This document shows, piece after piece, positions 13,689 to 48,120 of a stretch of 64,000 nucleotides of DNA (position 1 is the first letter of the stretch; each line of letters begins with the position of its first letter). Source of the DNA: a virus; the IMG/VR virus record IMGVR_UViG_3300031911_000002, positions 11,956 through 75,955 of that record; one strand, 5' to 3'. The position numbers and the translations under genes were made by a program. The notes below the pieces were generated by a model. The model was not told where the DNA came from. It was given only the letters and a program-made list of their open reading frames with translations, and did no database searches.

Positions 13689-13996
13689 TCCTTCACGCGG
13701 AGCAGCGCTGGGTCTGCCCCAACTGTCCGGCCACGGCCGTGACGGAGGGGCGGACCAACCGTTTCCACCGCTGCACGGGCCTGCGCCTGCTCCTCGCGCC
13801 CATGGTCCTGGAGGGAACCCGCTGCAAGGTGGTGGCGCGGGAGCGCGAGGACTACGTGGGCCGGGAGACCGTACAGTGCGATGGCGAGGGGCGCCCGGTC
13901 GCCGCCATCATGACCGTGCGGGACGATGGCGAGGACTGCACCGTGCTGGCGCCTGCGGCCCGTATGAGGATGGTGTCCGATGGCGTGGAGCGCTAG
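13685..13996 (+). CDS. Hypothetical Cys-containing protein
   Basis: GTGA overlap with the major tail gene; WVCPNC...FHRC. Confidence 0.6.
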   Translation: MILHAEQRWVCPNCPATAVTEGRTNRFHRCTGLRLLLAPMVLEGTRCKVVAREREDYVGRETVQCDGEGRPVAAIMTVRDDGEDCTVLAPAARMRMVSDGVER

Positions 13997-14486
13997 CGCG
14001 ATCTTCCGGGAGTGGCCCCGGTCCGTGATGGGACAGGGACAGACGGCGGCCGTTCTCCCGGCCGGGTACGCCGGACTGGGAGCCGACACCGTCAAGTGCG
14101 CCCTGTTCGGAGGCAACACCCCGGACAAGGACGCGGTCCTCGCGCAGACCGGCTACAACTCCGGCTCGTCCCAGTGGGTCACGGCGAACGAGAAGACGGG
14201 CGGGGCCGACTGGGTCTCCGGCGGCCGGACTCTGGGATCCAAGACCCTGACCACCCCGTCCTCCGGGGTGTTCATGTTCGACGCGGCAGACCTGACGAGT
14301 GCGGCGACCGCCACGATGTCGAACGTCGAGGGGGCCCTGATCTACGACGACACGATCACCGCCGGGACCGGCGGGGTGGCGGACCAGGGTGTCTGTTACC
14401 TCTGGTTCGGGGGCGCTCAGTCGGTCACCTCGGGGACGTTCTCCGTGATCTTCAACGCCGACGGACTGCTCCGGATCTCGGTTTAG
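13980..14486 (+). CDS. Virion structural protein
   Basis: Gly/Thr-rich; FDAADL...ALIYDDT...FGGAQSVTSGTFSV. Confidence 0.65.
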   Translation: MAWSASAIFREWPRSVMGQGQTAAVLPAGYAGLGADTVKCALFGGNTPDKDAVLAQTGYNSGSSQWVTANEKTGGADWVSGGRTLGSKTLTTPSSGVFMFDAADLTSAATATMSNVEGALIYDDTITAGTGGVADQGVCYLWFGGAQSVTSGTFSVIFNADGLLRISV

Positions 14487-14507
14487 TTTATTCGTCCCGC
14501 CGGATAC

Positions 14508-14675
14508 CTATCCGGTTACCCGGAGTCGCTTTAGCTAAATCTACCGATGCGTAGCGTAGCGGAAGCACGAGGTTGCGTTCTCCGCAGCGATCTGCGGACA
14601 CCCTGTCTCCCCGGACACCCGTCCGGAGTTCGTTGTTCGGCCAGGTCGGGCCACAGATCGCTACCGGCCGGTAAG
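14508..14675 (+). repeat. 168-bp dispersed non-coding repeat, copy 1
   Basis: Ungapped match to 37399-37566 (8 mismatches by manual alignment) and to 48121-48288. Confidence 0.95.
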
Positions 14676-14720
14676 AGGCCGTAGGCCACGGCCCGTATAT
14701 CCTTCCGTCGGGAGGTCGCC

Positions 14721-15512
14721 GTGACTGCTGACTTCGGGCCCTGTGAGAACTGGCCGATCCACTGGACGTGCCAGACGTCCTCGCTGGATCCGGCCGTGAC
14801 CGGGTACGCCGTATCGATGGCGACGCGGGTGCTGTGGTCGCTCTCCGGCCGCCGGTTCGGCACTTGCCAGACCACGCTCCGCCCGTGCCGCAAGGACTGT
14901 TACGACTCCTGGCCGTGGGGGTGGACCGAGTGGGACAACTCCGTGCTCGGGACCTCGGTCTGGTCCTCGTACCGCTACTGGTTCCCGCTCGCCTGCGGTG
15001 CCTGCACCACCGGCTGCTCGTGCTCCCGCGTCTCTGAGGTCGTCCTCCCCTCCCCCGTCAACAGCATCGTCCAGGTGAAGGTCGACGGCACCCCGCTCGT
15101 CACCGGGGCGTACCGGGTCGACAACAACCGGCTGCTGGTACGTACGGACGGCCAGGAGTGGCCTCTCTGCAACGATCTGAGCAAGGACGACACAGAGGCT
15201 GGCACGTGGTCCGTAACGGCCCTGTACGGCGAGGACGTGCCGGAGGGGGCCCGTCTCGCGATGGGTGAACTGGCCTGCGAGATCAGCAAGGCCGGAGCCG
15301 GTCAGGACTGCCGCCTTCCCCCCGGCGTCACCCAGCTCGTCCGGCAGGGTGTGACGATCCAGTACCCGGATGTCGGCCAGCTCCTGAAGGACGGCCGCAC
15401 CGGCCTGTACCTCGTGGACATGTTCATCGCGGCGGAGAACCCTCACGGCCTCACCCAGCGGGGCCGGGTCTACAGCGTGGACCGGGCCCTGAGCCGGAGG
15501 ACGAACACATGA
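14721..15512 (+). CDS. Head-to-tail adaptor
   Basis: LWSLSGRRFGTC..TLRPC, LACEI, CRLP..VTQLVRQGVT, TGLYLVD motifs. Confidence 0.75.
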   Translation: MTADFGPCENWPIHWTCQTSSLDPAVTGYAVSMATRVLWSLSGRRFGTCQTTLRPCRKDCYDSWPWGWTEWDNSVLGTSVWSSYRYWFPLACGACTTGCSCSRVSEVVLPSPVNSIVQVKVDGTPLVTGAYRVDNNRLLVRTDGQEWPLCNDLSKDDTEAGTWSVTALYGEDVPEGARLAMGELACEISKAGAGQDCRLPPGVTQLVRQGVTIQYPDVGQLLKDGRTGLYLVDMFIAAENPHGLTQRGRVYSVDRALSRRTNT

Positions 15513-23183: not shown

Positions 23184-23722
23184 TGACCTGGTCCGCGCCC
23201 ATGACGGCGGTCGCCGGAGCGACCTTCACGGCCGCCGAGTTCAACCAGTACGTCCGGGACAACCTCAACGAAACGGCCCCGGCGAAAGCCACAGCCGCCT
23301 CCCAGCTGTTCGTCTCCACCGGGGCGAACGCGATCACGACCCGGTCCCCGAGCACCACGTCGATATCCACGAACGAGAACACCACGAGCACGAGCTACAC
23401 CGACCTGACGACACCGGGTCCGTCCCTGTCCGTCGCCTGCGGGACGATCGCGCTCGTCTACTTCGCCGCCAGCCAGGCCAACGACACGGCCAACTCAGCG
23501 TGCCTGTCCTCCGTGGAGGTGACCGGCGCGTCCTCGGTGTCCGCGTCCGACAGCTGGGCTCTGCTCTCCGACGGGGTACAGGCGGGCAACTTCGTGAGGT
23601 ACGGGATGTTCCATGTCTTCACGGGTCTCACCGCCGGGACGAACACCTTCACGATGAAGTACCGCGCCGGGTCGTCCACGGCCCGGTTCCAGAGGCGAGA
23701 GATCGCCGTCATCCCCCTGTGA
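23183..23722 (+). CDS. Minor tail/fibre protein, paralogue 1
   Basis: N-terminus TWSAPMTAVAG...FNQYVRDNLNETAP; Ser/Thr-rich. Confidence 0.7.
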   Translation: MTWSAPMTAVAGATFTAAEFNQYVRDNLNETAPAKATAASQLFVSTGANAITTRSPSTTSISTNENTTSTSYTDLTTPGPSLSVACGTIALVYFAASQANDTANSACLSSVEVTGASSVSASDSWALLSDGVQAGNFVRYGMFHVFTGLTAGTNTFTMKYRAGSSTARFQRREIAVIPL

Positions 23723-23729
23723 GGATCCC

Positions 23730-24026
23730 GTGGCCACCGTCAAGCAGTACGCGCTCCAGGTCTGGCGGACCCAGACCGCCGTGAGCCAGAAACTCGGGTA
23801 CGACCTGCGTCAGGCCGATCTGCCCCTGCGGGCATTCGCCGTCTCCGGGGCTGTGATCACCGGCTGCGTCCTGCGGATCCTGTTCCTCAAGGGGACCGCC
23901 ACGGACAACGAGATGAGCACCGTGTTCACCAACGCGCGGGACGCCGACTACCCGCAGCTCCCCTACGGGCCCCCGGTCATCGACGAGGACAACCTGGAGC
24001 CTCCGGACCCGGATCTGGGGTCCTGA
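23730..24026 (+). CDS. Hypothetical protein
   Basis: GAGGA RBS; coupled to the next gene. Confidence 0.6.
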   Translation: MATVKQYALQVWRTQTAVSQKLGYDLRQADLPLRAFAVSGAVITGCVLRILFLKGTATDNEMSTVFTNARDADYPQLPYGPPVIDEDNLEPPDPDLGS

Positions 24027-24598
24027 TGGCGTGGACAGCCCCGTTCACAGCGGTCGCCGGGTCCGTCTTCACGGCGGCGCAGTGGAACACCTTCATCCGG
24101 GACAACCTGGCCGAGACCATGCCGTCCCGAGCGACGTCCGCCGGGTCCTGGTTCGCCGCGTCCGACACGAACCGGATCGTCCAGCGCACCCCCGCGTCGA
24201 TCATCGACACCCAGTCCGTCGACTTCACGTCCACGTCGTTCGGGGACCCCGAGAACGAGAACTCCACGGAGCGCCCCTCCACCCCCGGCCCGGCCGTCAC
24301 GGTCCTGACGGGGGTACAGGCTCTGGTGGGGTACCGCGTCAACATCCGTAACGCGTCCGTCAGCGCCCGGTGCGAGGCCAGTTACGAGATCTCGGGGGAG
24401 ACGAGCGTGGAGACGTCCAAGACGAGGTCCATCGGCTACTCCGTGTCCAACTCCGCATCCGGCCTGAACCTGCGGGCCGGGTGGATGGACCTCGCGACGG
24501 AGCTGACTCCGGGCCTGAACACCTTCACCCTCAAGTACAACGTCAGCTCCGGATCCGGCGTGGTCAACGACCGGCGCCTGTTCGTCGTCCCGCTCTAA
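24026..24598 (+). CDS. Minor tail/fibre protein, paralogue 2
   Basis: AWTAPFTAVAG...WNTFIRDNLAETMP; LTPGLNTFTLKY. Confidence 0.7.
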   Translation: MAWTAPFTAVAGSVFTAAQWNTFIRDNLAETMPSRATSAGSWFAASDTNRIVQRTPASIIDTQSVDFTSTSFGDPENENSTERPSTPGPAVTVLTGVQALVGYRVNIRNASVSARCEASYEISGETSVETSKTRSIGYSVSNSASGLNLRAGWMDLATELTPGLNTFTLKYNVSSGSGVVNDRRLFVVPL

Positions 24599-24608
24599 GG
24601 AGACCGCC

Positions 24609-25160
24609 GTGGCCTGGACAGCCCCCATGACTGCCATTGCCGGAGCCGTGTTCCAGGCCGCGCAGTTCAACACCTACGTCCGCGACAACCTCAACGAGAC
24701 CGCACCGGCCAAGGCCACCACGCCCGGCTCCATCTTCGCCGTCTCGGGGACGAACCAGATCGCGGAGCGCATCCCCGGCGCCGCCATCGACACCGGCACC
24801 GCCACCTTCACGTCCACCACGTTCGCCGACCCGGCCACCGGCTCCGCCGGACCGTCCGTCACGGTCACGACAGGGGTGCAGGCGCTCGTCGGATACCGTT
24901 CCTACCTGGAGGTACCGTCCACGACGGCCCGTGTGGAGGCCAGCTACTCGATCTCCGGGGCGACCACGCGCGCGGCCTCCACGACACGGTCCGTCGGGTA
25001 TTCGGTGTCCAACAGCGTCAACGGCCTCAAGACCCGGACCGGCGTGGTGGACCTGGCCACGGGCCTCACGCCCGGATCGAACACGTTCAAGCTGGAGTAC
25101 AACGTCAGTTCCGGGACCGGCACGGCCGCCGACCGGAGGCTGTGGGTGCTCCCCCTGTGA
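24609..25160 (+). CDS. Minor tail/fibre protein, paralogue 3
   Basis: AWTAPMTAIAG...FNTYVRDNLNETAP; LTPGSNTFKLEY. Confidence 0.7.
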   Translation: MAWTAPMTAIAGAVFQAAQFNTYVRDNLNETAPAKATTPGSIFAVSGTNQIAERIPGAAIDTGTATFTSTTFADPATGSAGPSVTVTTGVQALVGYRSYLEVPSTTARVEASYSISGATTRAASTTRSVGYSVSNSVNGLKTRTGVVDLATGLTPGSNTFKLEYNVSSGTGTAADRRLWVLPL

Positions 25161-31158: not shown

Positions 31159-31368
31159 GGTGTTCTCCCTCGTACCGTTGTGGTCCGGCCGGGACCGGGT
31201 CGGCCCCGGCCGGTCGTACGCCCCGCCCCGGAGGGCCGGATACCCGTTGCTCCGGGCGCAGAGAGGCCGGTTACGGGGCCCACCCGGCGACGACTTCCCC
31301 TTTACCCTCGTGCCCCGCTGGCTGCGGCGAGGGAGGCTGTCTCGCGTCGCTGAACGATCTGCCTTGCG

Positions 31369-31441
31369 TGCCGCCCGCAGGGATCGAACCTGCGGCCTCC
31401 GGGGTTTCACTCCGGCGCTCTCCCGACTGAGCTAGGGCGGC
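31369..31441 (-). tRNA. tRNA-Phe(GAA), no encoded CCA
   Basis: Cloverleaf: GCCGCCC/GGGCGGC acceptor, GCTC/GAGC D-stem, loop GTGAAAC, GCAGG-TTCGATC-CCTGC T-arm. Atypical A31:C39 and G32. Confidence 0.8.
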
Positions 31442-31476
31442 GACCCGGCCGGACCCCGGAGGGTCCGGCCGGTGGA

Positions 31477-31686: not shown

Positions 31687-31735
31687 GGCCGCTCCCTCGG
31701 TCGGGGCCGGACCCCGGAGGGTCCGGCCGGGTCGG

Positions 31736-33984: not shown

Positions 33985-34014
33985 GATCTTCCTTCCGTTG
34001 ACCGGATGCTTGCG

Positions 34015-34083
34015 TGGGCCTGGCCGGGTTCGAACCGGCGTCACGGGAGGGGTCCCCCTGCTCTGCCTCTGAGCTACAGACCC
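34015..34083 (-). tRNA. tRNA-like gene with truncated anticodon loop
   Basis: Acceptor GGGTCTG/CAGGCCC, D-arm GCTC/GAGC and T-arm GCCGG-TTCGAAC-CCGGC are intact; the anticodon stem GGGGG/CTCCC closes only a 4-nt loop. Confidence 0.75.
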
Positions 34084-34965: not shown

Positions 34966-35048
34966 GGTCGATCCTTCCGTGGTCGCCTGGCTCATCAGGA
35001 CCGGGTGGCGCCCGGCCGACGGCCCCGCCGGAGCGGGGCCGTTTCGCC

Positions 35049-35288
35049 TCAGTCTCGCGAGTCGCGCTCCAGGCGTCCCTCGTACCCGGCCGCCCACCCG
35101 TTCCCCCAGTGGTGCCACTGCACGGCCGACATCAGCCGGAGGGCCTCCACGTAATCCAGTCCGGCCGCCTCCGCCAGCCGGACCAGGACGTCCTCGGCCT
35201 CCGACCCCTGCTTGCCCTCCGTCCGGTCTCCGACCGGCTGACCGGCGATGCGGCGCGCTTCGTCCAGGATGTGCGTGATCTCGGGCAT
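35049..35288 (-). CDS. Hypothetical protein
   Basis: GACCACGGA leader; MPEITHIL... Confidence 0.6.
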   Translation of the reverse strand: MPEITHILDEARRIAGQPVGDRTEGKQGSEAEDVLVRLAEAAGLDYVEALRLMSAVQWHHWGNGWAAGYEGRLERDSRD

Positions 35289-37117: not shown

Positions 37118-37354
37118 TTACCGGATGATGGTGACGAACTGGTCCGCTACGGCCAGCCCCAGGAAGGGACGGAGGGTGGCGGTGTCGATGCCGCAGACCT
37201 CCACGGCGCTGTGGACCTCGTCCCGGTACGGGATCGCGACCGTCTGGGGCTTGTCGGCCGCCACGATCTTGCGGCCGTGGATCCGGACGATGTCGCCGGG
37301 GAGCACGTTCTCGATCTTGTCGCGCAGCTGGTTCAGCATTCCGATCTTCCTCAT
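37118..37354 (-). CDS. Hypothetical protein
   Basis: GACCACGGA directly before the ATG. Confidence 0.6.
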   Translation of the reverse strand: MRKIGMLNQLRDKIENVLPGDIVRIHGRKIVAADKPQTVAIPYRDEVHSAVEVCGIDTATLRPFLGLAVADQFVTIIR

Positions 37355-37398
37355 TCCGTGGTCTCCGCCTCAACGCGCTTATACGTAAGGCGGTATAT

Positions 37399-37566
37399 CT
37401 ATCCGGTTACCCGGAGTCGCTTTAGCTAAATCTACCGGTGCGTAGAGTAGCGGAAGCACGAGGTTGCCGTCTCCGCAACGAACTGCGGACACCCTGTCTC
37501 CTCGGACACCCGGCCGGAGTTCGTTGTTCGGCCAGGTCGGGCCACAGATCGCTACCGGCCGGTAAG
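37399..37566 (+). repeat. 168-bp dispersed non-coding repeat, copy 2
   Basis: See copy 1. Confidence 0.95.
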
Positions 37567-37613
37567 GAGCCAGCCGGTCCGGGGCCGGATGGATATACGG
37601 CCCCGGATGCAGC

Positions 37614-37982
37614 TCACGATCCGGACACCTCGCCCTTGCCCCGCTTCCGCAGGGTGGTGACCGGCTCCAGGGCACGGACGGAGTCGGCGAATAGACCCGT
37701 GGCACTGAAGCGGACCCGACGGACCTCCGTGGGCATCACGGCCCCCTCCGCACGCTTCCCCGGCAGTCCGCCTTCCGGGACCCGGCGCCACTGCGGGGTG
37801 AACGACCCGAAGTTGGTGAGGCTGACGCGGTACCCGGCGGCCACGTGGCGGCCGATGATGTCGAGCACGGCGTGCAGAACGTCCTCGGACGTCGCCGTCC
37901 GGAGGTCCACCTCGACGTCCAGCAGCTCCGCCAGCCGGGTGAAGTTGAGGTTGGTCTCAGGGCGTGCGATCTTCTTTTCCAT
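37614..37982 (-). CDS. HU/IHF-like DNA-binding protein
   Basis: G.RVSLTNFGSF...RRVRFSA. Confidence 0.75.
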   Translation of the reverse strand: MEKKIARPETNLNFTRLAELLDVEVDLRTATSEDVLHAVLDIIGRHVAAGYRVSLTNFGSFTPQWRRVPEGGLPGKRAEGAVMPTEVRRVRFSATGLFADSVRALEPVTTLRKRGKGEVSGS

Positions 37983-38015
37983 GATCTGTTCCTCTCTGGT
38001 CCGGTCGGCCGCCGG

Positions 38016-38303
38016 TCAGCGGTCGACACACTTGGGGTAGCTGGACCCCCGATAACAGCGGTCGAATCCGTCGTGGCTGACGTCCAGCTCGTACGTGGTG
38101 CCGTCCGGCCGCCGGATCGTCAGGTCGTAGTCGTAGTGGACCGTGGTCACCCCGGCGCTGCGGGTGGTCCAGATGCTCTCCTCCCTGTCCACGACCCGGC
38201 CGGGGTCCCCGCGCTTGTCGTCCGGGCCGCAGCCCGTCAGCGCGAGGGCGACGGCCGCCGCGACGGCGACGAGGGCGCCCGTCCGGCGCTTCATCCGTCC
38301 CAT
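38016..38303 (-). CDS. Lipoprotein
   Basis: Signal peptide with lipobox LTGC. Confidence 0.7.
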   Translation of the reverse strand: MGRMKRRTGALVAVAAAVALALTGCGPDDKRGDPGRVVDREESIWTTRSAGVTTVHYDYDLTIRRPDGTTYELDVSHDGFDRCYRGSSYPKCVDR

Positions 38304-38380
38304 GATCTGTACCTCCGTGGTCTCCGGCCTGAGCACCGGGTCGGACGGCCGGGCGGGGTCCGGCCGTCCTGCTCACCTGC

Positions 38381-38923
38381 TCAGAACCCGTACCCGCGCT
38401 CCCATGTCATCGGGTAGCTGTTGCGGTTGCCCTGCTCGTCGTGGTACCTGCCCTGGGGCACAGGCCGGACCGTGGCCGACACGACCTCGTCATCCCCCGC
38501 GATCTCCTCCACGATCCGGTCCCAGCTCGTGTCCGTCTGCTCCGGGCCTGTGTAGTACAGGTCCGTGTCGCCGTCGGCCAGAGCCCCCGTCCCCCGGTCC
38601 ACGACCACGTTCAGGTGCCAGTCAGCCCGCTGGGTCCGCTTGGCCGGGCGAAACGACTCCTCCGGGACGTCGTGCTCTTCTCCCCAGTAGCCGTCCACGC
38701 TTTCCCGGATGTGGATGCCGTGCGCCGCCGTCGCGCCGCACCGGAAGTTGCCCTTGCCGACGTGCATCTCATTGTCCGGCGCCGGAGGCGTCAGGCACGT
38801 CCAGGAGCAGTCCTCAGCGGCCTTGGCCGCCAGAGCCCCGGCCCTGTCCAGGGAGCGGAGCGGGCGTTCTCCGGGGTTGAGGACTCCGGAGCCCTCGTCG
38901 ATGACGTAGTACGTCGTGGCCAT
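38381..38923 (-). CDS. Hypothetical protein
   Basis: GGAGG RBS; MATTYYVIDEG... Confidence 0.6.
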   Translation of the reverse strand: MATTYYVIDEGSGVLNPGERPLRSLDRAGALAAKAAEDCSWTCLTPPAPDNEMHVGKGNFRCGATAAHGIHIRESVDGYWGEEHDVPEESFRPAKRTQRADWHLNVVVDRGTGALADGDTDLYYTGPEQTDTSWDRIVEEIAGDDEVVSATVRPVPQGRYHDEQGNRNSYPMTWERGYGF

Positions 38924-38925
38924 GG

Positions 38926-39291
38926 TCAGACCTCCAGGATGGTGTAGTGGGGTGTGGTTTCCAGCGACTTGCGGGGCGGGCCGTCGCAACCCGTGATCTG
39001 ACGGGGTGCTCCCCCGTCGTCCGGGACCTTCCAGTGGACGACCCCGTGATGCATCTGGACGGCGACGATCAGGCTGCCGTCGTCGTCCCGCGCGAACGCC
39101 GGATCGGTGTCCAGGGCCCCCAGGGCGGCGAGGACCTGATTGCGCAGGTCCACGGCCGCGTCCCGGTTCGTCCGGCCCCACCCGGTCAGCGGCCCCAGGC
39201 GCATCTGCACCTTGCGGGCCGCCGTGGCCGCCCCGGTCCGCAGCACCTTGACCGGGAATGACAGCCGGGTCTCGTCGGCAGCCACGGTCAC
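38926..39291 (-). CDS. Hypothetical protein
   Basis: GTGA overlap; GGAGG RBS. Confidence 0.55.
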   Translation of the reverse strand: MTVAADETRLSFPVKVLRTGAATAARKVQMRLGPLTGWGRTNRDAAVDLRNQVLAALGALDTDPAFARDDDGSLIVAVQMHHGVVHWKVPDDGGAPRQITGCDGPPRKSLETTPHYTILEV

Positions 39292-39437
39292 CACCTCCAG
39301 GTCGGGGCGGAGTCGTCTCCGCCCTGGTACATGCCGGGCGCGTCCTCGGGTCCGGCACAGTTGGCCGCCGCGCCCGCGAGGAGCGCGACGAGCAGGGTGA
39401 GCGAGGCGAGGGTGCGCCTGCCGATGATCTGGGTCAT
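39288..39437 (-). CDS. Small secreted/lipoprotein-like peptide (49 aa)
   Basis: MTQIIGRRTLASLTLLVALLAGAAANC... Confidence 0.5.
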   Translation of the reverse strand: MTQIIGRRTLASLTLLVALLAGAAANCAGPEDAPGMYQGGDDSAPTWRW

Positions 39438-39460
39438 GGGTCCCTCCGGGAGCGGGCTGG

Positions 39461-40414
39461 CTAGATGGCGATGAAGGCGTACGGGTGGCCCAGGGCGTAC
39501 CGCTCCGCAAGGACGTCCTGCACGTTCTCCGGGGCGTCCAGGGCGACGGCCGTTCCGGGGGCGGTCGAGTAGACGTCGGTCTCGCTGACGATCCAGGACG
39601 TCCGCTCGTCGCGGGCGCGGGGCTCACGGGGGTCGCGCGCGCTCATCAGCCGGTCGTACGCGTCCCGGCCGATCGTCTCGGGGGAGCCGTCCCAGTTCTG
39701 CACCTCCATCGTGGTGCAGACCTCCAGCTCCCCCTCGCTGGCGCGGGTGGTGCCTCCGGCGGCCAGCGAGGGGTCGTCCAGCTTCACGATGACGCTCCAG
39801 CCGGACGGGCCGAACGCGCGGGTGCCCTCCACCACGGTCCCCGTGAAGCCGTGCCGCGTGTGGCGGACCGGGCCGGTGACCGGAGCGGTCTGCGCCTGCG
39901 CTACGAGGGCCGCCTTGGTGGGGGCCGCCTTGCGGACCCGGCGGTGCAGGGTGGTGTGGGTGACCCTGTCGAACCGGAAGCTGCGGACGTCGCCGTCACG
40001 GCGGTCGTCCTCGGCCCGCACGATGTAGTCCCCGCCCTGGGTGCGGTACAGGGACTGCGGGCGGACCCGGCGCCGGGAGACTTCGCCGGTCGGCTTGACA
40101 TACCGGATGCTCATCTCGCGGCCGGTACGGATCGCGGTGGTGACGCGTAGCATGTCGTCCTCGCTGGCGTAGACGACCGTGTCGACGACGCCGCCCGTGA
40201 CGAGCGCCCACACGGCGAGGCCGGGGAAGTCGTAGAACCAGACCTCCCCGGCCTCGTTGAAGTCGGCCGCCGTCTCCAGGTGGGCCGTGGCCATGTCGTC
40301 CACGATCCACTCCGCCTCGCCCGCCTGCTTGGGCGTCCACACGGCCTCCACGCTCGCCTGGCCGTTCACGAAGTTGATGGTGGCGACGGTCCGGCTTCCG
40401 GTGTTCTCTCGCAT
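39461..40414 (-). CDS. WYL-domain protein
   Basis: IRYVKPTGEVSRRRVRP...YIVRAEDDRRDGDVRSFRFDRV. Confidence 0.85.
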   Translation of the reverse strand: MRENTGSRTVATINFVNGQASVEAVWTPKQAGEAEWIVDDMATAHLETAADFNEAGEVWFYDFPGLAVWALVTGGVVDTVVYASEDDMLRVTTAIRTGREMSIRYVKPTGEVSRRRVRPQSLYRTQGGDYIVRAEDDRRDGDVRSFRFDRVTHTTLHRRVRKAAPTKAALVAQAQTAPVTGPVRHTRHGFTGTVVEGTRAFGPSGWSVIVKLDDPSLAAGGTTRASEGELEVCTTMEVQNWDGSPETIGRDAYDRLMSARDPREPRARDERTSWIVSETDVYSTAPGTAVALDAPENVQDVLAERYALGHPYAFIAI

Positions 40415-40508
40415 CGTCCTGGTCCCTTGGTCTGTGGTCGGTTGTTGTACTCCCCCAATCATTCCCGATTTAGGTTAATCCGTAAACCTCCGTTTTACCT
40501 GGGGAAGT

Positions 40509-41429
40509 TCACTCGTTCAGCTCCTCCAACGATCGCCGGATACCCTCCTCCAGGCTGATCTTGGGGGCGTAGTACCCGAGCAGGAGCCGGTTGGGGTCCC
40601 CCACCCGGTACGCCACGCCCTGCGGGGCGTCCGGGTTCGGGCGGATCTCCGCTGTCTTCCCCGCCTCCCGGAGCATCATCGTGGCCAGCAGGGTGAACGG
40701 TGTCGGCTCTCCTGTGCAGAGGTTCACCGGCTGCACGGTGCCGGACTCCGCGACCGCGAGGGCCCCGGCGACGATGTCATCCACATGGATCCAGTCCCTC
40801 ACGCAGTCCCCGCACCACAGCTCCAGGGGTTGACCGGGTTGCAGGGCGCGCACCCGCTCCAGGATGGCCCGGAAGGGATACGACGGGTCCTGGTCGGAGC
40901 CGTACCCGCTGAAGGGCCTGACCACGGTCACCGGCACCCCGGCCGCACGCAGCTTCCCGGCGAGCATCTCCCCGGTGACCTTGCTCCAGCCGTAGACCTC
41001 GTCGGGCGGTCCCAGGCTGAGCCGGGCACAGTCCTCGTCCAGACGGCTCTCATAGGTCACGGCCTGCTGAAGGGCCACCGGGTACGCCGCGCTGGAGCTG
41101 ATGTACAGCACCCGGCCCGGCCGCGCGACGGCCGCCCACCGGAACATCTCCGCGTCGATCGACAGGGACTCCGCCGTGGCCAGCGGGTCCCGCTCGATGG
41201 TCTCCCGGCCGCCGACGACGGCGGCGCAGTGCACGACGAGGTCGAATCCAGGGCTGTTCTCCCCGGCCCTCCTGTGGATCAGGTCGTTCTGGAAGTACCT
41301 CCGGCAGTCCTGCGCAGAGGACGCCTTGACGTCCAGGCCGTAGACCTCCCAGCCCCGGCGCCGCAGCTCCGTCGTGAAGTGCCGCCCCAGGAAGCCCCGG
41401 TCGCCCGTGATCAGTGCGCGCATCACCAT
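40509..41429 (-). CDS. NAD-dependent NDP-sugar epimerase/dehydratase
   Basis: LITGDRGFLG, SSSAAY, YGWSK, RPFSGYG, RDWIHVDD. Confidence 0.9.
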   Translation of the reverse strand: MVMRALITGDRGFLGRHFTTELRRRGWEVYGLDVKASSAQDCRRYFQNDLIHRRAGENSPGFDLVVHCAAVVGGRETIERDPLATAESLSIDAEMFRWAAVARPGRVLYISSSAAYPVALQQAVTYESRLDEDCARLSLGPPDEVYGWSKVTGEMLAGKLRAAGVPVTVVRPFSGYGSDQDPSYPFRAILERVRALQPGQPLELWCGDCVRDWIHVDDIVAGALAVAESGTVQPVNLCTGEPTPFTLLATMMLREAGKTAEIRPNPDAPQGVAYRVGDPNRLLLGYYAPKISLEEGIRRSLEELNE

Positions 41430-42022
41430 CTGTCGTTCCTTCCGCTCGTGTTGCCGGGGTGCCAGTGCCAGGTCCACGTCCGGCGGGGCAGGTGGGAGAA
41501 CGTCGCTCCGGCGCCCACGAGCCGCTCCCAGGTCCCCCAGTCATCGCACGGGTTCTCCGGAGGTCCCTTGGGGGTGAACCCGCCGATCTCCCACAGCAGG
41601 TCCGTACGGGCGAGGACCGTGATCGGGATGTAGTTGAACTCCCGCAGGCGCTCCTCGCTGAAGGGGGACCCCTCCACGCCGGGCCACGGGTCGAATCCGC
41701 CGGAGACGTTGAACCAGGGGTAGACGACGTCCGCCCCCGTCTCCTCCGCGTGCGCCAGCAGGCACTCCACGTGGTCCGGGTTCCACTCGTCGTCGTCGTC
41801 CAGGAACGCAGCCCACGTCGTGCCGACCCCGGACACGGCCCGCGTCCGGTTCAGGGCGGAGCCCCGGCGCGCGTGGTCCACGCTGACGCTGATCGCGTCG
41901 ACCGGCCGCGTCTGGCTCAGGACCGAATCGAGAGCACGGCGCAGCTTGCCGTCGGCCGCCCGTGGCGGGATCGCGGGGATGACGGCCGTGACGCCGGGCC
42001 GCATGCGCGAGGGCCGGGTCAC
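41423..42022 (-). CDS. Glycosyltransferase family 2
   Basis: VTAVIPAIP, AFLDDDD, DDWGTW. Confidence 0.85.
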   Translation of the reverse strand: MTRPSRMRPGVTAVIPAIPPRAADGKLRRALDSVLSQTRPVDAISVSVDHARRGSALNRTRAVSGVGTTWAAFLDDDDEWNPDHVECLLAHAEETGADVVYPWFNVSGGFDPWPGVEGSPFSEERLREFNYIPITVLARTDLLWEIGGFTPKGPPENPCDDWGTWERLVGAGATFSHLPRRTWTWHWHPGNTSGRNDRW

Positions 42023-42672
42023 AGCGAGACCGCCATCCACAGCTGGAAGACGTAGGCGTCCTCCCACCCCTTGGTCGCCTCCGGTCGGAGGATCTTCAGC
42101 TCCAGGGGGTCCCACCCGTTGTCCTGGAGCATCCGGTGCAGGTCCGCCTGGTCCCAGCCCCAGTAGTGCTCGGTGTTGCCGGACCCCACGCGCTCCCCGA
42201 GGGGCGTGGACAGGAACAGGTACCGGGACCAGTCGGCCGCGTCCGCCAGGATCCGGTCGGGATCCTTCACGTGCTCCAGCGTCTCGCTGAGGATCAGCAG
42301 GTCCACCGGAGCGTCTACCGGGAGCTGATGCAGGCTGTCCGGCAGAGGCTCCGGCCTCAGGATCGTCGCCGGGGCCCGGCACGACACGGCCGCCGACGCG
42401 GGGACCCCGTTGAGGTCCCCGAACCAGGCGTGGTCCAGCTTGAGGGTCGTGCTGATCATGTTGAGCAGGGCCCCGTCCCCGCAGCTGAGATCGGCCGCCG
42501 TCCGGATCCTCGACCCGTACCGCTCGATCAGGTCGGCCGACGCCTTGATCCGCTCGATGTGATCGGCCCACCGGTCGTGCCGGTAGCCGTCCGGGTACGT
42601 CCGGCGGTAGAGGGCGCGCTCGTCCCCAGGGGACCGGAAGTCCTCCTCGGGGCGCAGTCGGTACTTAGCCAC
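42019..42672 (-). CDS. SAM-dependent methyltransferase
   Basis: ADLSCGDG, SETLEHV.DP, LSTP. Confidence 0.85.
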   Translation of the reverse strand: MAKYRLRPEEDFRSPGDERALYRRTYPDGYRHDRWADHIERIKASADLIERYGSRIRTAADLSCGDGALLNMISTTLKLDHAWFGDLNGVPASAAVSCRAPATILRPEPLPDSLHQLPVDAPVDLLILSETLEHVKDPDRILADAADWSRYLFLSTPLGERVGSGNTEHYWGWDQADLHRMLQDNGWDPLELKILRPEATKGWEDAYVFQLWMAVSL

Positions 42673-43369
42673 GGCCGTACTCCTTGTTGACGGTCCTCAG
42701 CAGAGCCTCGAACTTGACTCCGTCCCTGAACGCTTCCCACGCCAGGCGGTCCGCCTGGTCCACGGAGGAGTCGTTGACGGCGGCGTAGCGGTCGTCCCAC
42801 TGAGCCTTACCGGCCACGGGGTGCAGGTGCTCGATGACGACGTCGTCCCGGTACCGCAGTCCGCCCACAGCCTCCCCGAGGTGCTTCCAGAAGTTGTCGA
42901 GGTACAGGTGGCGCATCACCTGCGGAGCCATGATCCCCATCGCCCGGATCATCCTCGACTGCATGAACACCGCTGTCGGCAGGGCCGCGCCCTGGAGCAG
43001 ATCGTTGCCGTAGGCGATGCGGGGCTCCAGGCTGTCCAGCTCCGTGATCATCTGCTCGTCCCACCCACGGGTCCGGGGCAGGTGGTCGTCCCCCATGAAC
43101 CCGACGTAGTCGAACGCGGCGGCGTACCGGCGCGCAGTGAAGTTGAGCGGGAAGCACAGCCCTCCGCCTCCGGCCTGGTCCATGACGAGGAGCCGCGTGA
43201 GGGCCCCGTCATCGAGCAGGGCCCTGTACTCCTCCAGCTTCGGGTCGTCCGGGTCGGCCACGAACACGGCAGCGGCGCCCAGGACGGTCGTGTCCCTGAA
43301 CGCCGCTTCCAGCCGGGCCGCATTCTCCGGCCGTCCCCTGGTGGGGACGACCACAACGAGATCGGTCAC
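42665..43369 (-). CDS. Glycosyltransferase (GT-A)
   Basis: VVVPTRGRP, FMGDDH, HLYLDN, IEHLHP. Confidence 0.8.
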   Translation of the reverse strand: MTDLVVVVPTRGRPENAARLEAAFRDTTVLGAAAVFVADPDDPKLEEYRALLDDGALTRLLVMDQAGGGGLCFPLNFTARRYAAAFDYVGFMGDDHLPRTRGWDEQMITELDSLEPRIAYGNDLLQGAALPTAVFMQSRMIRAMGIMAPQVMRHLYLDNFWKHLGEAVGGLRYRDDVVIEHLHPVAGKAQWDDRYAAVNDSSVDQADRLAWEAFRDGVKFEALLRTVNKEYGRG

Positions 43370-43749
43370 CTGGTCCTCTTTCCTCGGTCACGGGCTGCGG
43401 CCTCTGCCAGCCCGGCGTTGATCTGTGCCTCACGGGCGGTCTTGATCAGGAACGCCAGCGCCACGGCGAACAGCGTAAGCCCGATCAGGCCCATCAGCAG
43501 CGCCATCATCGCGACCGCCAGGAGCAGGGCGCAGATGGTGAGGATGATGGTCGACCCGAGGGCGAGCCAGACCCACGGCAGCGCCTTTTCGGCGAACGAG
43601 GGTCCGCCCCCCTCCGGCGCCGGAACAGGTGCCGGGGCCGGAGGGTAATGGTGGTGGATGTGGATGTGCTGGCCACCGGCCGGAGGGGTCGGGTTCGCCC
43701 GGAGGTAGTCCACGATCTCCGGCAGGCGGTCGCTGTTCGGCTGGTCCAT
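43366..43749 (-). CDS. Membrane protein (possible spread protein)
   Basis: HIHIHHH-Pro linker followed by two TM segments; downstream of traB-like gene. Confidence 0.55.
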   Translation of the reverse strand: MDQPNSDRLPEIVDYLRANPTPPAGGQHIHIHHHYPPAPAPVPAPEGGGPSFAEKALPWVWLALGSTIILTICALLLAVAMMALLMGLIGLTLFAVALAFLIKTAREAQINAGLAEAAARDRGKRTR

Positions 43750-43766
43750 GGTCCGGCGCTCCTTGC

Positions 43767-43991
43767 TCAGGCGGTCGGGTTGATCCGCCGCTGGACGTAG
43801 AGGTCCAGGGCGACCCACGGGAAGATGCAGGCGGCGATCATCACGAGCGATCCGGCGACGTTGAAGTTGACCCGGTCGCCGGGGATGAGCCCCGTGATGA
43901 GCAGCCAGGTGAAGAATCCGAGGACCACGTCCAGGGCGATGAGCCCGTACGTGATGGCCTCCCGGACGGCCCACCGGACGATTGCTTCCAT
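43767..43991 (-). CDS. Small membrane protein
   Basis: GAGAGGA RBS; two TM segments. Confidence 0.55.
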   Translation of the reverse strand: MEAIVRWAVREAITYGLIALDVVLGFFTWLLITGLIPGDRVNFNVAGSLVMIAACIFPWVALDLYVQRRINPTA

Positions 43992-44018
43992 GATCGTTGT
44001 TCCTCTCTCGACGGCGTC

Positions 44019-44155
44019 TGACACGCTCTGTGACAGCCGCACGGTGATCGCCCAGGAATTCCCTAGGTCAGGGCCCGTGTCAGAAAGTGACTGACACCCT
44101 CTGACACGGACCCTGACACAGGGAGTGACACTAGGTGTGACACCCCTTGTGACAT
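44019..44155. repeat. clt-like array of TGACA(C) repeats
   Basis: TGACA at 44019, 44031, 44092, 44102, 44114, 44126, 44138, 44150 (mostly 12-bp period) plus an inverted copy at 44077; immediately 3' of the traB-like stop codon. Confidence 0.8.
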
Positions 44156-44159
44156 GCGC

Positions 44160-46148
44160 TTATCCGGTCTGCGGGTACCTCTTGATGATCTCGTAGACCA
44201 CCCCGCCCTCGGGCGGCCGGATCTCCCGCAGACGGCCCGCGTCGACCAGCAGGCCCAGGTTCTGGTACACCCAGCCCCGCTTGCGGCCCACCTCCTCCGG
44301 GAGGTCGGCGAGGTCGGCGAACCGGATCTGCATCCGGCCGCTGGCCTCCAGGACGTCGATGCGGTTCTGGAGCCGGGCACGGGCCTGCTCCGTGGACATC
44401 GTGACCTGCGGCCCCGGCGCGTCACTGAAGCTGATGTCCAGAGCCTGCGCCGGAGGAGGCCGCAGAGGCTCGTTGACGTCAGCTCCAGGGACCCCGGAGA
44501 ACATCACGCTCCCGCTCATCTCCTCGTCCTCCTCTCCGTATTCGTCCAGGTCAGCGTCCTGGTCCTCGTCCGCCGGGGTGACGGCCGGGTCGATCCCGAA
44601 CGCCAGCCGCTCGTAGGTGCCCCCGTCGATCTCGGCCCAGTACTGCCGGGACTGCTCGATGCACATGCGCTTCTCGGCGGCCTTCATGTAGACCGTCCGG
44701 CCGTCGATCGGCCAGTGGACCTTGTCCGTGCCCGTGACCTCGGCGTACAGGCTGCCGGGATGGTCGGGCCCCCACTTGGTGGGGTCGGCTCCGGCCTCCA
44801 GAGTCTCCGGCCGCAGGGAGTACTTGGCGTCCTGAAACTCGTTCTGCCCGTGGGCCAGCGACTCGCTGAACTGACCCCTGACCTTACGGGGGATGTCGTC
44901 GTGCGGCATGGTCTGCATCGACAGGTTCAGCTTGACCCCAAGGGACCGCAGCTTGCGCACCGCCTCGTAGACCTCCTCGTCACGGTCCATGATGACGTCG
45001 GCCGCCTCCTCGATGTCCACGAAGATGAACGGGACGCCGTGCAGGGAGTAGCACTCCGGCTCCCACTGCTTGTAGCCGGTGCCGCCGTCCGACCTGGTCA
45101 GGGACCCCAGGAGGTCGGAGCGGTAGGTGACCACCGGTCCGGCCAGGTTCTCGAACAGCTGCATGACCTGCTCTTTTGTCTTGGCCGCCAGGCCCAGGCA
45201 CTCCTCGATGTCGCTGAAGGACTGCGCGAACTTGGCCGGGTCCCCGACGACCGGGACGATGTCCGTCCTCCAGCGCATGTCCAGGATCGCGGTGCAGACC
45301 GTCTCGGTCTTGCCGGATCCGGGGACGCCGGTCGTCTTGGAGTGGGTGACGTTGCGGGGATTCTTCGGGTCCGTGGACCCCGGCATCCACCACTCGATGT
45401 CCGATCCGTCCGTCCGGCGTCCCAGCCACAGCGGCGCTGCGGCGCAGGACTGTCCCGGTGCGGACGGCCCCCGGTAGACGAGGGGACGGGACGTGTCCTG
45501 GGCTCGGGTGAGGACAACGTCCACCTTGGACTCGTCCCCCTTCACCTTCAGGATCTTGACCTGGTCCTTGCCGACCCCGGCGACGGCCGCCACCTGGGAC
45601 GCGGCACGCTGTGCGTCCTCGGCCGTGGTGGGGGCCGCGAGGGACTCCGTCCAGCGCATCTCCTGTCCGTTGTCCTTCGGGCTGGAGCTGCGGCTGTTCT
45701 TGAAAACGGAGATCTTGTCCCCGAGCCAGGACCCGGAGCTGTCCCCTGTCCTGTCCCGGTCGTGTCCCGCGACGATGCCCGCGTGACGGATCATCCAGAA
45801 CGAGGACAGGGACACGCCGCCGATGACCCACGCCTTGAGCATGTCCCCGCGCCACGGTGTCCCTGTCCCGGCGAAGACGATCCAGGACAGGAGGACACCG
45901 ACGAACAGGGTGGCTGTCACGCGTGTCTCGCTGCGGCGTCCCTTCCACGTCACCCATGTCCCGTAGGTCATGGCGGTGCAGATGACTCCCAGGACAGCCA
46001 TCCACCGGCCGTCGCCCCCCACCGTGAAGTGGATGACCACGGCCACCGGCATGGCGACGAGGGCGAGCCCCCACGGCGCCAGGTACGGCGCCGTCTTCTC
46101 TCCGATGCGCAGCCCCAGGGAGCCGCGCCGGTAGCCGTGGCCAGCCAT
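44160..46148 (-). CDS. traB: TraB-like FtsK/SpoIIIE DNA translocase
   Basis: N-terminal TM helices, Walker A GVPGSGKT, DPAK, Walker B VDIEEAA, RKLRSLG, C-terminal wHTH (RKRGWVYQNL..LVDAGRL). Confidence 0.8.
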   Translation of the reverse strand: MAGHGYRRGSLGLRIGEKTAPYLAPWGLALVAMPVAVVIHFTVGGDGRWMAVLGVICTAMTYGTWVTWKGRRSETRVTATLFVGVLLSWIVFAGTGTPWRGDMLKAWVIGGVSLSSFWMIRHAGIVAGHDRDRTGDSSGSWLGDKISVFKNSRSSSPKDNGQEMRWTESLAAPTTAEDAQRAASQVAAVAGVGKDQVKILKVKGDESKVDVVLTRAQDTSRPLVYRGPSAPGQSCAAAPLWLGRRTDGSDIEWWMPGSTDPKNPRNVTHSKTTGVPGSGKTETVCTAILDMRWRTDIVPVVGDPAKFAQSFSDIEECLGLAAKTKEQVMQLFENLAGPVVTYRSDLLGSLTRSDGGTGYKQWEPECYSLHGVPFIFVDIEEAADVIMDRDEEVYEAVRKLRSLGVKLNLSMQTMPHDDIPRKVRGQFSESLAHGQNEFQDAKYSLRPETLEAGADPTKWGPDHPGSLYAEVTGTDKVHWPIDGRTVYMKAAEKRMCIEQSRQYWAEIDGGTYERLAFGIDPAVTPADEDQDADLDEYGEEDEEMSGSVMFSGVPGADVNEPLRPPPAQALDISFSDAPGPQVTMSTEQARARLQNRIDVLEASGRMQIRFADLADLPEEVGRKRGWVYQNLGLLVDAGRLREIRPPEGGVVYEIIKRYPQTG

Positions 46149-46150
46149 GG

Positions 46151-46660
46151 TCAGCGACCTCCGAACGGGTCGAATCCGCCGCGTGAGCTGCGGTGGGGGC
46201 GGACGGTCTGCATGCTCTCCAGCCGGTCCAGGAAGTCCTCCATGGGCGCGTAGGCGTCCATGGCGTCCTTGGCCACGGCGAACAGGTCGTCGTGAGCGTT
46301 GGCGAGACGGCGGGAAACCTTCCTCAGAACCAGGCGCAGTTCAGCTTTCTGCGCGAGGGTGAGACGGCCGTCCGCACTGTCACGGGCGCCCTTCTTCATG
46401 GCGCGCTCCAGCTGGGTGGCGGCCGACTCCGTGAAGAACGCCGCGCCGGTCGCCAGCGCCCGCAGGGCCTCCAGGAACTGGTACAGCCCCTGGGGGTCGA
46501 GCACCTCGCCCTCGGTCAGGGTGTTCAGCGCCGCCGGGAGGTCCGTGCGGCGGCCGGGGCCGCTCGGGGCGGCCGGGGCCGCCGGGGCGGCCGGAGCTGC
46601 GGCCGGGGCCGTCTTGGAGGCGGCCGTCTTGCGGGCGGACCCGCCGGTTGCAGTGGTCAT
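46151..46660 (-). CDS. TraA-like accessory transfer protein
   Basis: Helical protein directly upstream of traB-like gene; ends ...RGGFDPFGGR. Call is mainly from synteny. Confidence 0.5.
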   Translation of the reverse strand: MTTATGGSARKTAASKTAPAAAPAAPAAPAAPSGPGRRTDLPAALNTLTEGEVLDPQGLYQFLEALRALATGAAFFTESAATQLERAMKKGARDSADGRLTLAQKAELRLVLRKVSRRLANAHDDLFAVAKDAMDAYAPMEDFLDRLESMQTVRPHRSSRGGFDPFGGR

Positions 46661-46681
46661 GATCTGTCCTTCCGTGTGCGG

Positions 46682-47641
46682 TCAGGGCCGGGACAGCTTG
46701 TCCTTGGCCCGGTTGATGGACTTGTTCACCGTGTTGGTCTTGGGAGGTGTCCCGTCCGGGGACGCGTACTCCGCCATGAGCGTCTTGGCCACCGTGTCCT
46801 CCGGTGTACCGGCCTGGAGGAGGGACAGCGCCCGCGATCCCATCGACGGACGGGACGTCCCGAGGGACACCGGCACCGGGACGGCCGCTGCGGGGGACGT
46901 CCCGGCGGACAGGGCCGGACGGGACACCGGGGCCGGGACAGCGGACGGGACAGCCGCCGGGGAGGACGTCCCTGTCCGCGTCAGGGACACGACGGGCCGG
47001 GACACAGGGACGGCCGCCGGGGACGCCGGAGGGACAGGGGCTGTCCTCGGCGCCGGGGACGTCCTGCGGGGCCGGGACGCGGCCACGGGGACAGTGCCCT
47101 GGATGTCCTGTCCCGCAGCGTCCCCGGCGGGGACGGCGGGACGCGGCGGCATGGCGGCGAAATGCAGCAGGTGTCCCAGGATCAGGGGCGGGACGGAGGA
47201 CACCGTGACGACGAGCCACACGGGCGGCCGGGGGTCGGCCGACAGGTACCCCGTCACGAACAGGTGGCTGACCGGCTGGGCCCCCATCGCCAGCGCGAGG
47301 GAGAGCACGGCGCCCCAGATGGACGACGACTTGCCCCGCGCCCCCTTGGGGAGCTGGGTGGAGATGACGGCCGCCAGACCCGCATACAGCGTGAACAGGC
47401 CCGCCATGCCCCAGCTCAACCGGTAGCTGAACCCGGACAGGTCCGCCAGGTGCTGCTCACCGGGCGCGCAGAGGACAAGGACGAGGATGGCGGACACCGG
47501 GACACCCCAGCGCCGGAAGTGTGACACCCAGGAGGGGACACCGGCCGTGGACGGGACACCGGCCGTGGACGGGACACCGGCCAGGACAGCGGCAGGGGAC
47601 GTGTCCTCGGGGGACACCGAGCGTTTGAAGGGACGCCTCAT
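46682..47641 (-). CDS. SpdB/DUF2637-like spread protein
   Basis: About four TM segments (GEQHLA..SGF, VSSVPPLILGHLLH), Pro/Ala/Val low-complexity linker, C-terminal HTH-like end. Confidence 0.65.
   Translation of the reverse strand: MRRPFKRSVSPEDTSPAAVLAGVPSTAGVPSTAGVPSWVSHFRRWGVPVSAILVLVLCAPGEQHLADLSGFSYRLSWGMAGLFTLYAGLAAVISTQLPKGARGKSSSIWGAVLSLALAMGAQPVSHLFVTGYLSADPRPPVWLVVTVSSVPPLILGHLLHFAAMPPRPAVPAGDAAGQDIQGTVPVAASRPRRTSPAPRTAPVPPASPAAVPVSRPVVSLTRTGTSSPAAVPSAVPAPVSRPALSAGTSPAAAVPVPVSLGTSRPSMGSRALSLLQAGTPEDTVAKTLMAEYASPDGTPPKTNTVNKSINRAKDKLSRP
47535..47582. repeat. 18-bp tandem repeat GGGACACCGGCCGTGGAC (about 2.7 copies)
   Basis: Seen directly; encodes AGVPST repeats. Confidence 0.85.
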
Positions 47642-47761
47642 GACCCTGTCCTCTCTTCCGTGGTCCGGTTTCCTTAAATCGGTTGGTCGAGTATGGCATG
47701 TCCGCTGGGACGTCCCGGTAAACCCGGACAGTCCTGTCCCGTGTCCTGTCCCCGGACACAG

Positions 47762-47795: not shown

Positions 47796-47801
47796 TCCGG
47801 A

Positions 47802-48083: not shown

Positions 48084-48120
48084 GATCTCTGCTCCTTGGT
48101 CTATTCGGTCCGGCGGATAC

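Follow-up and report, generated by a model that had tools for sequence, protein, structure and literature searches.

Introduction

The REP/BIME elements of Escherichia coli and the Correia elements of Neisseria are chromosomal repeats that number tens to hundreds and may lie in either orientation. Here we describe a repeated non-coding element, the cassette, in a 64,000-nucleotide stretch of viral DNA (IMG/VR record IMGVR_UViG_3300031911_000002). The whole stretch, hereafter the window, is bases 11956-75955 of a 75,955-bp record that is rated 92% complete. Like REP/BIME and Correia elements, the cassette is intergenic and multicopy, is built as a mosaic from palindromic modules and is co-transcribed with its neighbours, with similar ends and presence/absence polymorphism. 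It differs from them in being carried by a phage genome in 4-5 copies, at syntenic sites, and in keeping to a strict rule of orientation and a strict length. The kind of element, an interspersed, palindrome-built intergenic cassette, is already known; the form, phage-borne, 214 bp long, length-locked, syntenic and bounded by putative operators, appears new in the literature searched.

Other known systems share single properties with the cassette. Cluster K mycobacteriophages have start-associated sequences of 13 bp and extended ones of ~35 bp, actinophage-specific repeated motifs ahead of some gene starts; their counterpart here is a generic motif, GACCA(A/C)GGA, whereas the cassette is a 214-bp unit bounded by palindromes. 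With the paired operators of gal, lac and ara, which work by looping, the cassette shares two dyad sites at a fixed distance; its length variants differ by about one helical turn, and in the present genome a gene for an HU-like protein adjoins copy 2 of the cassette. Here, however, the DNA between the sites is conserved and has hairpins, the unit is repeated 4-5 times per genome, and the binding protein is a candidate only.

The PeSL (promoter-early stem-loop) cassettes of T4-type phages are outlined in PMC2839356 and PMC4122927 as small cassettes of a strong sigma-70-like promoter and a terminator stem-loop. On that outline they are, like ours, repeated, non-coding, intergenic, composite phage cassettes beside variable genes, where recombination could shuffle or excise the genes between copies. 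The unit described here differs in being ~214 bp, length-locked and bounded by two dyad sites, and in having no sigma-70 promoter or U-tailed terminator that our scans could find. The KorA/KorB system of RK2, as far as PMC11790492 presents it, offers short palindromic operators scattered at the operon starts of a mobile genome, and the present genome too has a ParB-family gene.

From comparison of the copies, we tentatively favour the reading that the repeats are a clade-specific, non-coding intergenic cassette of ~214 bp acting mainly at the level of double-stranded DNA, as an operator-bounded regulatory junction with a transcribed hairpin core.

Results

A repeat family bounded by palindromes

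A first-pass annotation of the window had reported three ungapped 168-bp cores, at 14508-14675, 37399-37566 and 48121-48288, about 94-95% identical to copy 2, and had not recognised the element. Positions and gapless alignment were borne out, as were the identities (copies 1 and 2, 160/168 or 95.2%; copies 2 and 3, 158/168 or 94.0%); copies 1 and 3 share 152/168 positions (90.5%), and in a repeat search the three cores are the largest direct-repeat family of the window. The count of three holds for the window, but the genome as a whole (G000) has four copies, the fourth being a minus-strand copy at genome 11077-11284 (L004:1498-1710, minus), just outside the left edge of the window. The common orientation described for the three copies in the window (c1-c3) therefore does not extend to the genome, since the fourth copy (c4) is inverted. 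The unit had also been drawn too short: the real one is ~213-214 bp and is bounded by two 16-bp palindromes. Its non-coding nature stands. Five of the six reading frames carry stops; in the lone open frame, on the reverse strand, the substitutions are all residue-changing, and a 1-nt indel separates two subfamilies inside a conserved block, so that a coding sequence was rejected.

When nine related records were searched with the element by BLAST, one good copy and fragments were found. An nhmmer profile found full-length but diverged copies in G002, G003, G005, G006 (five copies) and G008. Further copies came from pattern scans of IMG/VR and of metagenome contigs, after which whole records were fetched, and in total 49 nhmmer hits were reduced to 34 distinct copies in our own genome and related uncultured contigs. 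One 35-kb viral contig (L046 / G010) has an exact 20-mer of the conserved block (TTCCCTTCTGAGGAGCGAAC) with no cassette recognisable by nhmmer.

No member of the family was found in Rfam, among cultured phages or in the literature searched. A scan of the window with Rfam 15 at the gathering threshold gave no match at the element, only two tRNAs and a type II hammerhead ribozyme elsewhere, and a scan at E<=10 of four loci with divergent copies gave nothing at the element. No similar DNA was found in cultured phages with three different copies as queries, nor in plasmids. Within IMG/VR, only the own record contains the exact 21- and 24-mers of the G000 type. When one genome per bacterial species was scanned with a 19-mer, the 16 hits all proved by nhmmer to be chance matches of ~24 nt. 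The literature search, which included Streptomyces phage intergenic repeats and palindromes, found no description of this element.

Anatomy of the cassette

In the orientation of the first-pass annotation, the cassette reads from left to right as end site P1, a ~15-bp spacer, palindrome P2 (in most copies), block B1, hairpins H2 and H3, a CCAGGTCRG block, a tail, and end site P1'. B1 (TACCGGTSCGTAGNGTA) is the most conserved block and holds the 4-bp hairpin H1. H2 has a 5-bp stem and a 7-nt loop, while in H3 the outer arm CGAAC/GTTCG is conserved and the inner stem and loop vary. The CCAGGTCRG block is set between short complementary arms and is followed by the sequence-variable tail. Conserved non-palindromic blocks are B1 itself, AGGTT..TCT, GTTCG and CCAGGTCAG, and the TTTAG(C/T)TAAA motif reported for the cores is present. 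The cassette occupies the whole intergenic gap between two genes that run in the same direction, with P1' abutting the stop codon of one neighbour and P1 lying ~25 nt from the ribosome-binding motif of the other.

Copy 1 (14498-14710, plus strand) is sense to both neighbours, a gene of 168 amino acids (aa) at 13980-14486 (plus) and the head-tail adaptor gene at 14721-15512 (plus). Its P1, CCGGATACCTATCCGG, is at 14500-14515 and its P2, TTTAGCTAAA, at 14530-14539; P1' (CCGTATATCCTTCCGT, 14693-14708) has an intact left half-site and starts 193 bp after the start of P1.

Copy 2 (37389-37602, plus) is antisense to the HU-like gene on its right (37614-37982, minus) and to a 78-aa gene on its left (37118-37354, minus). 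It has P1 (CGGTATATCTATCCGG) at 37391-37406 and the same P2 (TTTAGCTAAA) at 37421-37430, and its P1' (CCGGATGGATATACGG, 37585-37600) starts 194 bp after the start of P1. All three hairpins lie on the plus strand: H1 (CTAC-CGGTGC-GTAG) at 37432-37445, inside B1; H2 (GTTGC-CGTCTCC-GCAAC) at 37463-37479; and H3 (GAACTGCGG ... CCGGAGTTC) at 37480-37522, enclosing a variable insert of fixed length.

Copy 3 (48111-48323, plus) is antisense to a glycosyltransferase gene on its right (48314-49006, minus) and to a 93-aa gene on its left (47802-48083, minus). P1 (GCGGATACCTATACGG) is at 48113-48128, P2 (TTTAGTTAAA) at 48143-48152 and P1' (CCGTATAACTACGCGC) at 48306-48321, again with the left half-site intact and starting 193 bp after the start of P1.

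The end sites are specific to the cassette

P1 and P1' are 7-2-7 dyads, CCGTATA-NN-TATACGG, and both ends fit the degenerate form CCGKATR-NN-YATMCGG. Because a 2-nt spacer cannot form the loop of an RNA hairpin, an RNA hairpin at these sites is ruled out. With at most one mismatch, P1 occurs at seven sites in G000 against 0.15 expected, and six of the seven are at cassette ends; there are four such sites in G006, none in G008, and none in G004, a complete related phage that has no cassette. P2 is distributed differently. The palindrome TTTAGNTAAA is found 12 times in G000 and 14 times in cassette-free G004, against <=0.5 expected, and in G000 it is always intergenic, typically between a G+C-rich hairpin and a start or ribosome-binding motif. 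Solitary copies of TTTAGNTAAA stand at operon starts, often just after a G+C-rich hairpin, at window positions 411, 32964, 36988, 40469, 47669, 49802, 52822, 54151 and 57462. P1 is thus cassette-specific and P2 is generic in the clade; as a general motif that is also found in G004, P2 does not define the cassette.

P2 shares its central 10 bp (TTTAGCTAAA) with the core of the RK2 KorA operator (OA) oligonucleotide given in PMC11790492, GTTTAGCTAAAC. A search of G000 for the KorA-type repressor family PF16509 gave no match, even at E up to 1, and since G000 encodes no KorA-family protein we treat the likeness as a resemblance only, which may be due to chance.

Exact matches to the start-associated motif GACCA(A/C)GGA number 21 in the genome, mostly 5-15 nt before a start codon; examples in the window are at 32947, 36002, 36323, 47657, 48093, 49782, 52778 and 52852. 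A ribosome-binding site and start codon borne by the element itself were considered and rejected, because the conserved CATGATC..TCCTTGGTC on the left belongs to this motif.

The length of the cassette is kept where its sequence is not

Segment lengths were measured in 31 copies, the right-end site of two copies being set by hand from alignments. The distance from P1 to B1 is 41-42 bp in 31/31 copies, and that from B1 to the GGTC block is 100-101 bp in 31/31, although the variable part of H3 lies inside it. From GGTC to P1' the distance is 50-52 bp in 26 copies, 40-41 bp in three and 62 bp in one, the remaining copy being cut by a contig end. Measured from start to start, P1 and P1' are therefore 192-195 bp apart in 26/31 copies, 183-184 bp in three, 204 bp in one and 176 bp in the copy cut by the contig end. 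The exceptional spacings differ from the norm by ~10-11 bp, i.e. about one helical turn. Over the last 40 bp before P1' the median pairwise identity is only 35%, so here length is kept without sequence. We read this length lock as a geometric constraint on double-stranded DNA.

Local hairpins without a shared fold

Four proposed helices were scored on an alignment of 25 sequences. Standard pairs fill 83% of helix cells, against 31-47% when the partners are slid by 1-3 columns, and the covariation score of 0.186, compared with 0.116 ± 0.010 in shuffles, was reached by 0/500 of them. H1 is almost invariant, with 99% of its cells paired. In H2, where 90% of cells are paired, 13 copies have C-G and 10 have G-C as pair 79/89. 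H3 shows changes on both sides in 5/9 pairs, and a search in free register found a stem of 8-22 Watson-Crick pairs in 26 of the 31 copies examined. Because the hairpins show compensatory changes, this part of the cassette appears to matter as a single strand too, most simply as a transcript. Most second-subfamily copies have TTTT directly after the AGGTCA hairpin, and only on the plus strand; the G000 subfamily lacks this run of T. A TAGNGT is conserved within B1.

These data support the local hairpins H2 and H3; a global consensus fold is absent. The consensus structure of 27 copies is weak, at -28.5 kcal/mol on the plus strand and -28.2 kcal/mol on the minus strand. Shuffle z-scores have a mean of -1.5 on the plus strand and -1.3 on the minus strand, in 14/25 copies the plus strand has the greater stability, and six individual minimum-energy folds, with z from +1.0 to -3.6, disagree among copies.

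Most of the pairings first seen in the window do not carry over to the family. The palindrome TACCGGCCGGTA is present in the window copies and is restricted to the G000-type subfamily (5/25 family copies). The same restriction applies to the long-range pair GTAGCG/CGCTAC, which is found in that subfamily, CGCTAC being present in 6/25 copies. The CCGCA..TGCGG hairpin, said to keep its stem while its loop varies, is fully paired in only 3/25 members, and its 'loop' is the 5' arm of a better conserved hairpin. The flanks, described as co-varying inverted repeats, do not form a helix: 10/25 copies have no pair at the variable position (columns 15/218), TATCCGG stands opposite a matching CCGGATG in only 2/5 cases, and G.T and A.C mismatches are equally frequent (9:9), so that a terminal stem was rejected. 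A pairing of the 5' TTTAGCTAAA with the 3' TTTTACTAAA was also rejected, by eye, as loss of one motif is not compensated in the other.

Cassettes occupy conserved junctions in a set orientation

Third-position G+C of the flanks shows 18/33 copies to be clearly antisense to the genes on both sides; the others are sense, or their flanks are short or ambiguous. As the first-pass annotation had noted, c1 has plus-strand neighbours and c2 and c3 minus-strand ones. The sense copies number six, all directly upstream of the head-tail adaptor gene (G000 c1, L087, G006, L051, G005 and G008). Around the circular map, orientation falls into two blocks in both G000 and G006, a pattern with a ~50% probability by chance with five copies.

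Junctions are shared between relatives. In G006, one copy follows the HU-like gene and another the glycosyltransferase gene, matching c2 and c3; a third precedes the adaptor gene, like c1, and a fourth lies beside the left gene of c4. A copy in G002 lies at the c4 junction. The gene on the right side of the cassette is conserved in each junction compared. On the left side, G006 lacks homologues of the genes at c2 and c3, and at the adaptor site there is extra DNA in G006 and G005. These two phages have extra genes between the 168-aa gene and the adaptor-site cassette, one of 524 aa in G006 (L041:4942-6516) and one of 783 aa in G005 (L036:14953-17304), which G000 and G004 are without.

Cassette-free G004 has no P1 sites, and its adaptor junction is a compact 9-bp gap from the upstream stop codon to the adaptor start. 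This empty junction, the kind of comparison proposed in the first-pass annotation, is too diverged from the filled sites to be examined for target duplication.

Identity over ~235 bp, flanks included, is 75-80% among the G000 copies and ~50% between these and the same-junction copies of G006. Among themselves the G006 copies share 50-73%, and some have a closer match in a positional counterpart from another contig (72% to the G003 copy, 63% to the adaptor-site copy of G012). The sites are thus old and the element is under selection; in the G000 lineage the copies have been homogenised or replaced. Modules appear to have been shuffled between copies. Copies 2 and 3 (37399-48288) form direct repeats 10,722 bp apart, and the DNA between them holds HU-like, WYL, epimerase, methyltransferase, glycosyltransferase and TraB-like genes.

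The phage genome and other features of the window

The window has a G+C content of 70%. By third-position G+C, genes run on the plus strand to ~40.1 kb of the genome and on the minus strand beyond. The portal protein is <=41% identical to portals of cultured Streptomyces, Gordonia and Arthrobacter phages, and uncultured relatives with 54-85% portal identity are present in IMG/VR. No tyrosine or serine integrase/recombinase was found in G000.

Small minus-strand genes flank the Rfam match to a type II hammerhead ribozyme, which is at 34981-35049 on the minus strand and scores 44.6 bits (gathering score 37). Near it are tRNA-Phe (31368-31441) and a tRNA-Gly(ccc)-like gene (34014-34083). A 30-nt inverted repeat (31441-31470 / 31705-31734, 87% complementary) flanks a 69-aa minus-strand gene by tRNA-Phe. 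The tail region has three tandem paralogous genes at 23184-24832 (starts 23183, 24026 and 24609) with 62-71% DNA identity.

Discussion

A proposed operator-bounded junction

The three options raised in the first-pass annotation were a multicopy structured RNA, a MITE-like (miniature inverted-repeat transposable element-like) element and a polar DNA site, and the last is the best fit, given the palindromes, the fixed spacing and the blocks in both orientations. A DNA element fits better than an RNA because the dyads have 2-nt spacers, one palindrome has no spacer at all, length is locked in DNA without conserved sequence, and the blocks occur in both orientations.

How such a junction might work can be sketched. 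A phage-encoded dimeric DNA-binding protein would sit on the two end sites and bridge them, giving a loop of ~194 bp. The bridged complex would gate transcription between the conserved right-side gene and the more variable left-side genes, and the hairpin core, once transcribed, would serve as a stop or processing part; overall, the unit would be a composite terminator-operator-restart cassette. Its logic would be that of the PeSL cassettes, whose capacity for gene shuffling it may also have. We infer the bound, looped and gating steps from the sites. As dispersed blocks of homology, the copies may recombine with one another and could move genes between copies, and such recombination would explain why the G000 copies are more alike than same-junction copies elsewhere.

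Candidates for the binding protein are a WYL-domain protein (39461-40462) and a ParB-like protein (51935-52768), the gene for the latter matching DUF6551 and phrog_1033. G006 has homologues of both genes, G004 of neither. Each of the two genes is preceded by a copy of a 46-nt leader (40412-40457 and 52766-52811; 74% identity), which suggests that they are co-regulated.

A more elaborate form of the favoured reading, which we consider unlikely, makes the cassette a novel type of organiser of the phage genome: a loop-forming, operator-bounded insulator, locked in helical phase, that would separate conserved genes from swappable cargo, emit a ~110-nt plus-strand RNA and be kept uniform between copies by gene conversion. 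It would then be a regulated gene-exchange platform for actinophages, with features of PeSL, of integron platforms and of looped repressors.

A number of observations weigh against the operator-bounded junction. The phasing argument comes down to only about three independent indel events, and a 10-11-bp (10.5-bp) periodicity was not found in the conservation profile. Several copies are without P2, and the two end operators leave the conserved non-palindromic blocks unexplained. The adaptor-site copy faces the opposite way to all others, so that a promoter facing the next gene fails as a general account. No sigma-70-type promoter or U-tailed terminator was found in the copies scanned, with a consensus that is not specific to actinobacteria or their phages. 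Within the hairpins, G.T outnumbers A.C by 6:0 in H1 and 15:2 in H2 (21:2 together), as would fit a plus-strand RNA. The candidate binders are weakened by the ~20 G000 genes that share their pattern of presence in G006 and absence from G004, and G008 has a ParB-like homologue (39%) but no P1 site.

Alternative explanations

The main rival, which we consider rather unlikely, is a multicopy small RNA gene or cis-acting leader, with a plus-strand core of ~110-120 nt (B1 to the AGGTCR hairpin) that is transcribed from within and has the end palindromes as operators; the RNA would either have a trans-acting role or, where it is made at the adaptor site, lead the tail-gene operon. This proposed transcript coincides with the stretch of highest conservation, and the compensatory changes in H2 and H3, the conserved TAGNGT and the hairpin with TTTT on the plus strand only, in most second-subfamily copies, would all suit it. 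A gene with its own signals could also sit either way between its neighbours. The G.T excess on the plus strand, however, may reflect only one or two events, and H3 is without strand bias (G.T to A.C, 10:12 in fixed register and 13:19 in free register). The two strands give nearly equal consensus energies, with no shared global fold, modest z-scores on both and individual folds that differ. Consensus scans find neither promoter nor terminator, the G000 subfamily has no T-run, and Rfam has no match up to E 10; moreover, a fixed length in a tail free of conserved sequence would be unusual for an RNA. Of the structured RNA first proposed, two or three hairpins with compensatory changes therefore stand, and a consistent global fold does not.

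A ParB-type or replication role and a MITE-like history are less likely than the small RNA. 16-bp palindromes are the classic form of parS, and the cassettes could be dispersed parS-like loading sites for a ParB-like protein, in KorB-type silencing or the partition of a plasmid-prophage, or else strand-specific priming or replication signals with hairpins in single-stranded DNA. This we judge quite unlikely. The ParB-like gene is present in G000 and absent from G004, a plasmid-like lifestyle is conceivable as no integrase was found, the lack of strand bias in H3 is as expected of DNA hairpins or cruciforms, and the two-block orientation is seen in both G000 and G006. Yet that orientation pattern is about as probable as not by chance, G008 combines a ParB-like homologue with the absence of P1, no ParA partner was seen (none was looked for), and a loading site has no need of ~180 bp of conserved, length-locked DNA between two copies of itself. 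A parS-like loading site for the ParB partner of thymine dioxygenase was set aside, because that ParB, in the account of PMC13229309, works in E. coli and is without an obvious DNA-binding domain.

About as doubtful is a mobile origin, in which the cassette would be either a selfish recombination module or a non-autonomous element of MITE-like or Correia/BIME-like type, with any regulation secondary. The same 16-bp site at both ends resembles terminal inverted repeats, several copies are found per genome, presence is polymorphic (none in complete G004, with its compact adaptor gap), modules appear shuffled, and the G000 copies are far more alike than same-junction copies elsewhere. Each end site, however, is itself palindromic, which is atypical for a MITE; junctions shared by G000, G002 and G006 make most copies old at their sites; and the G006 copies named above are closer to their counterparts in G003 and G012 than to each other. 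Orientation is non-random, with 18 clear antisense cases and the adaptor site always sense. Searches of G000 and G006 for a TnpB-/IS200-type transposase, and of G000 for a tyrosine or serine recombinase, were negative, other transposase families not having been searched, and species-representative bacterial genomes have no copy in the 19-mer scan. Since positions are syntenic and orientation is non-random, recent mobility of the MITE type is unlikely. The first-pass annotation had named a recent neutral duplication, one without function, as the case that would refute its reading, and 90-95% identity without gaps among the three window copies might suggest one. Block order, sequence and length, however, are conserved at shared junctions in phages with 54-76% portal identity, and paralogues in G006 fall to 50% identity yet keep all distances, which makes this explanation extremely improbable and, for practical purposes, excludes it.

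Significance

Whatever its mechanism, the cassette is a strongly constrained non-coding element, and its two conserved blocks with their fixed distances are a simple marker for relatives in metagenomes. If the operator-bounded junction is the right reading, a clade of soil-type, high-GC phages would control several of its operon junctions by one repeated, precisely dimensioned nucleoprotein module. These junctions would include the entry to the tail genes, and others border an island of glycosylation and DNA-transfer genes. The cassette would be a natural case of paired operators, constrained in helical phase, repeated around a genome, and would account for the exchange of cargo genes at fixed junctions. 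It would thereby open a way to study how genes are regulated in phages for which no cultured relative exists.

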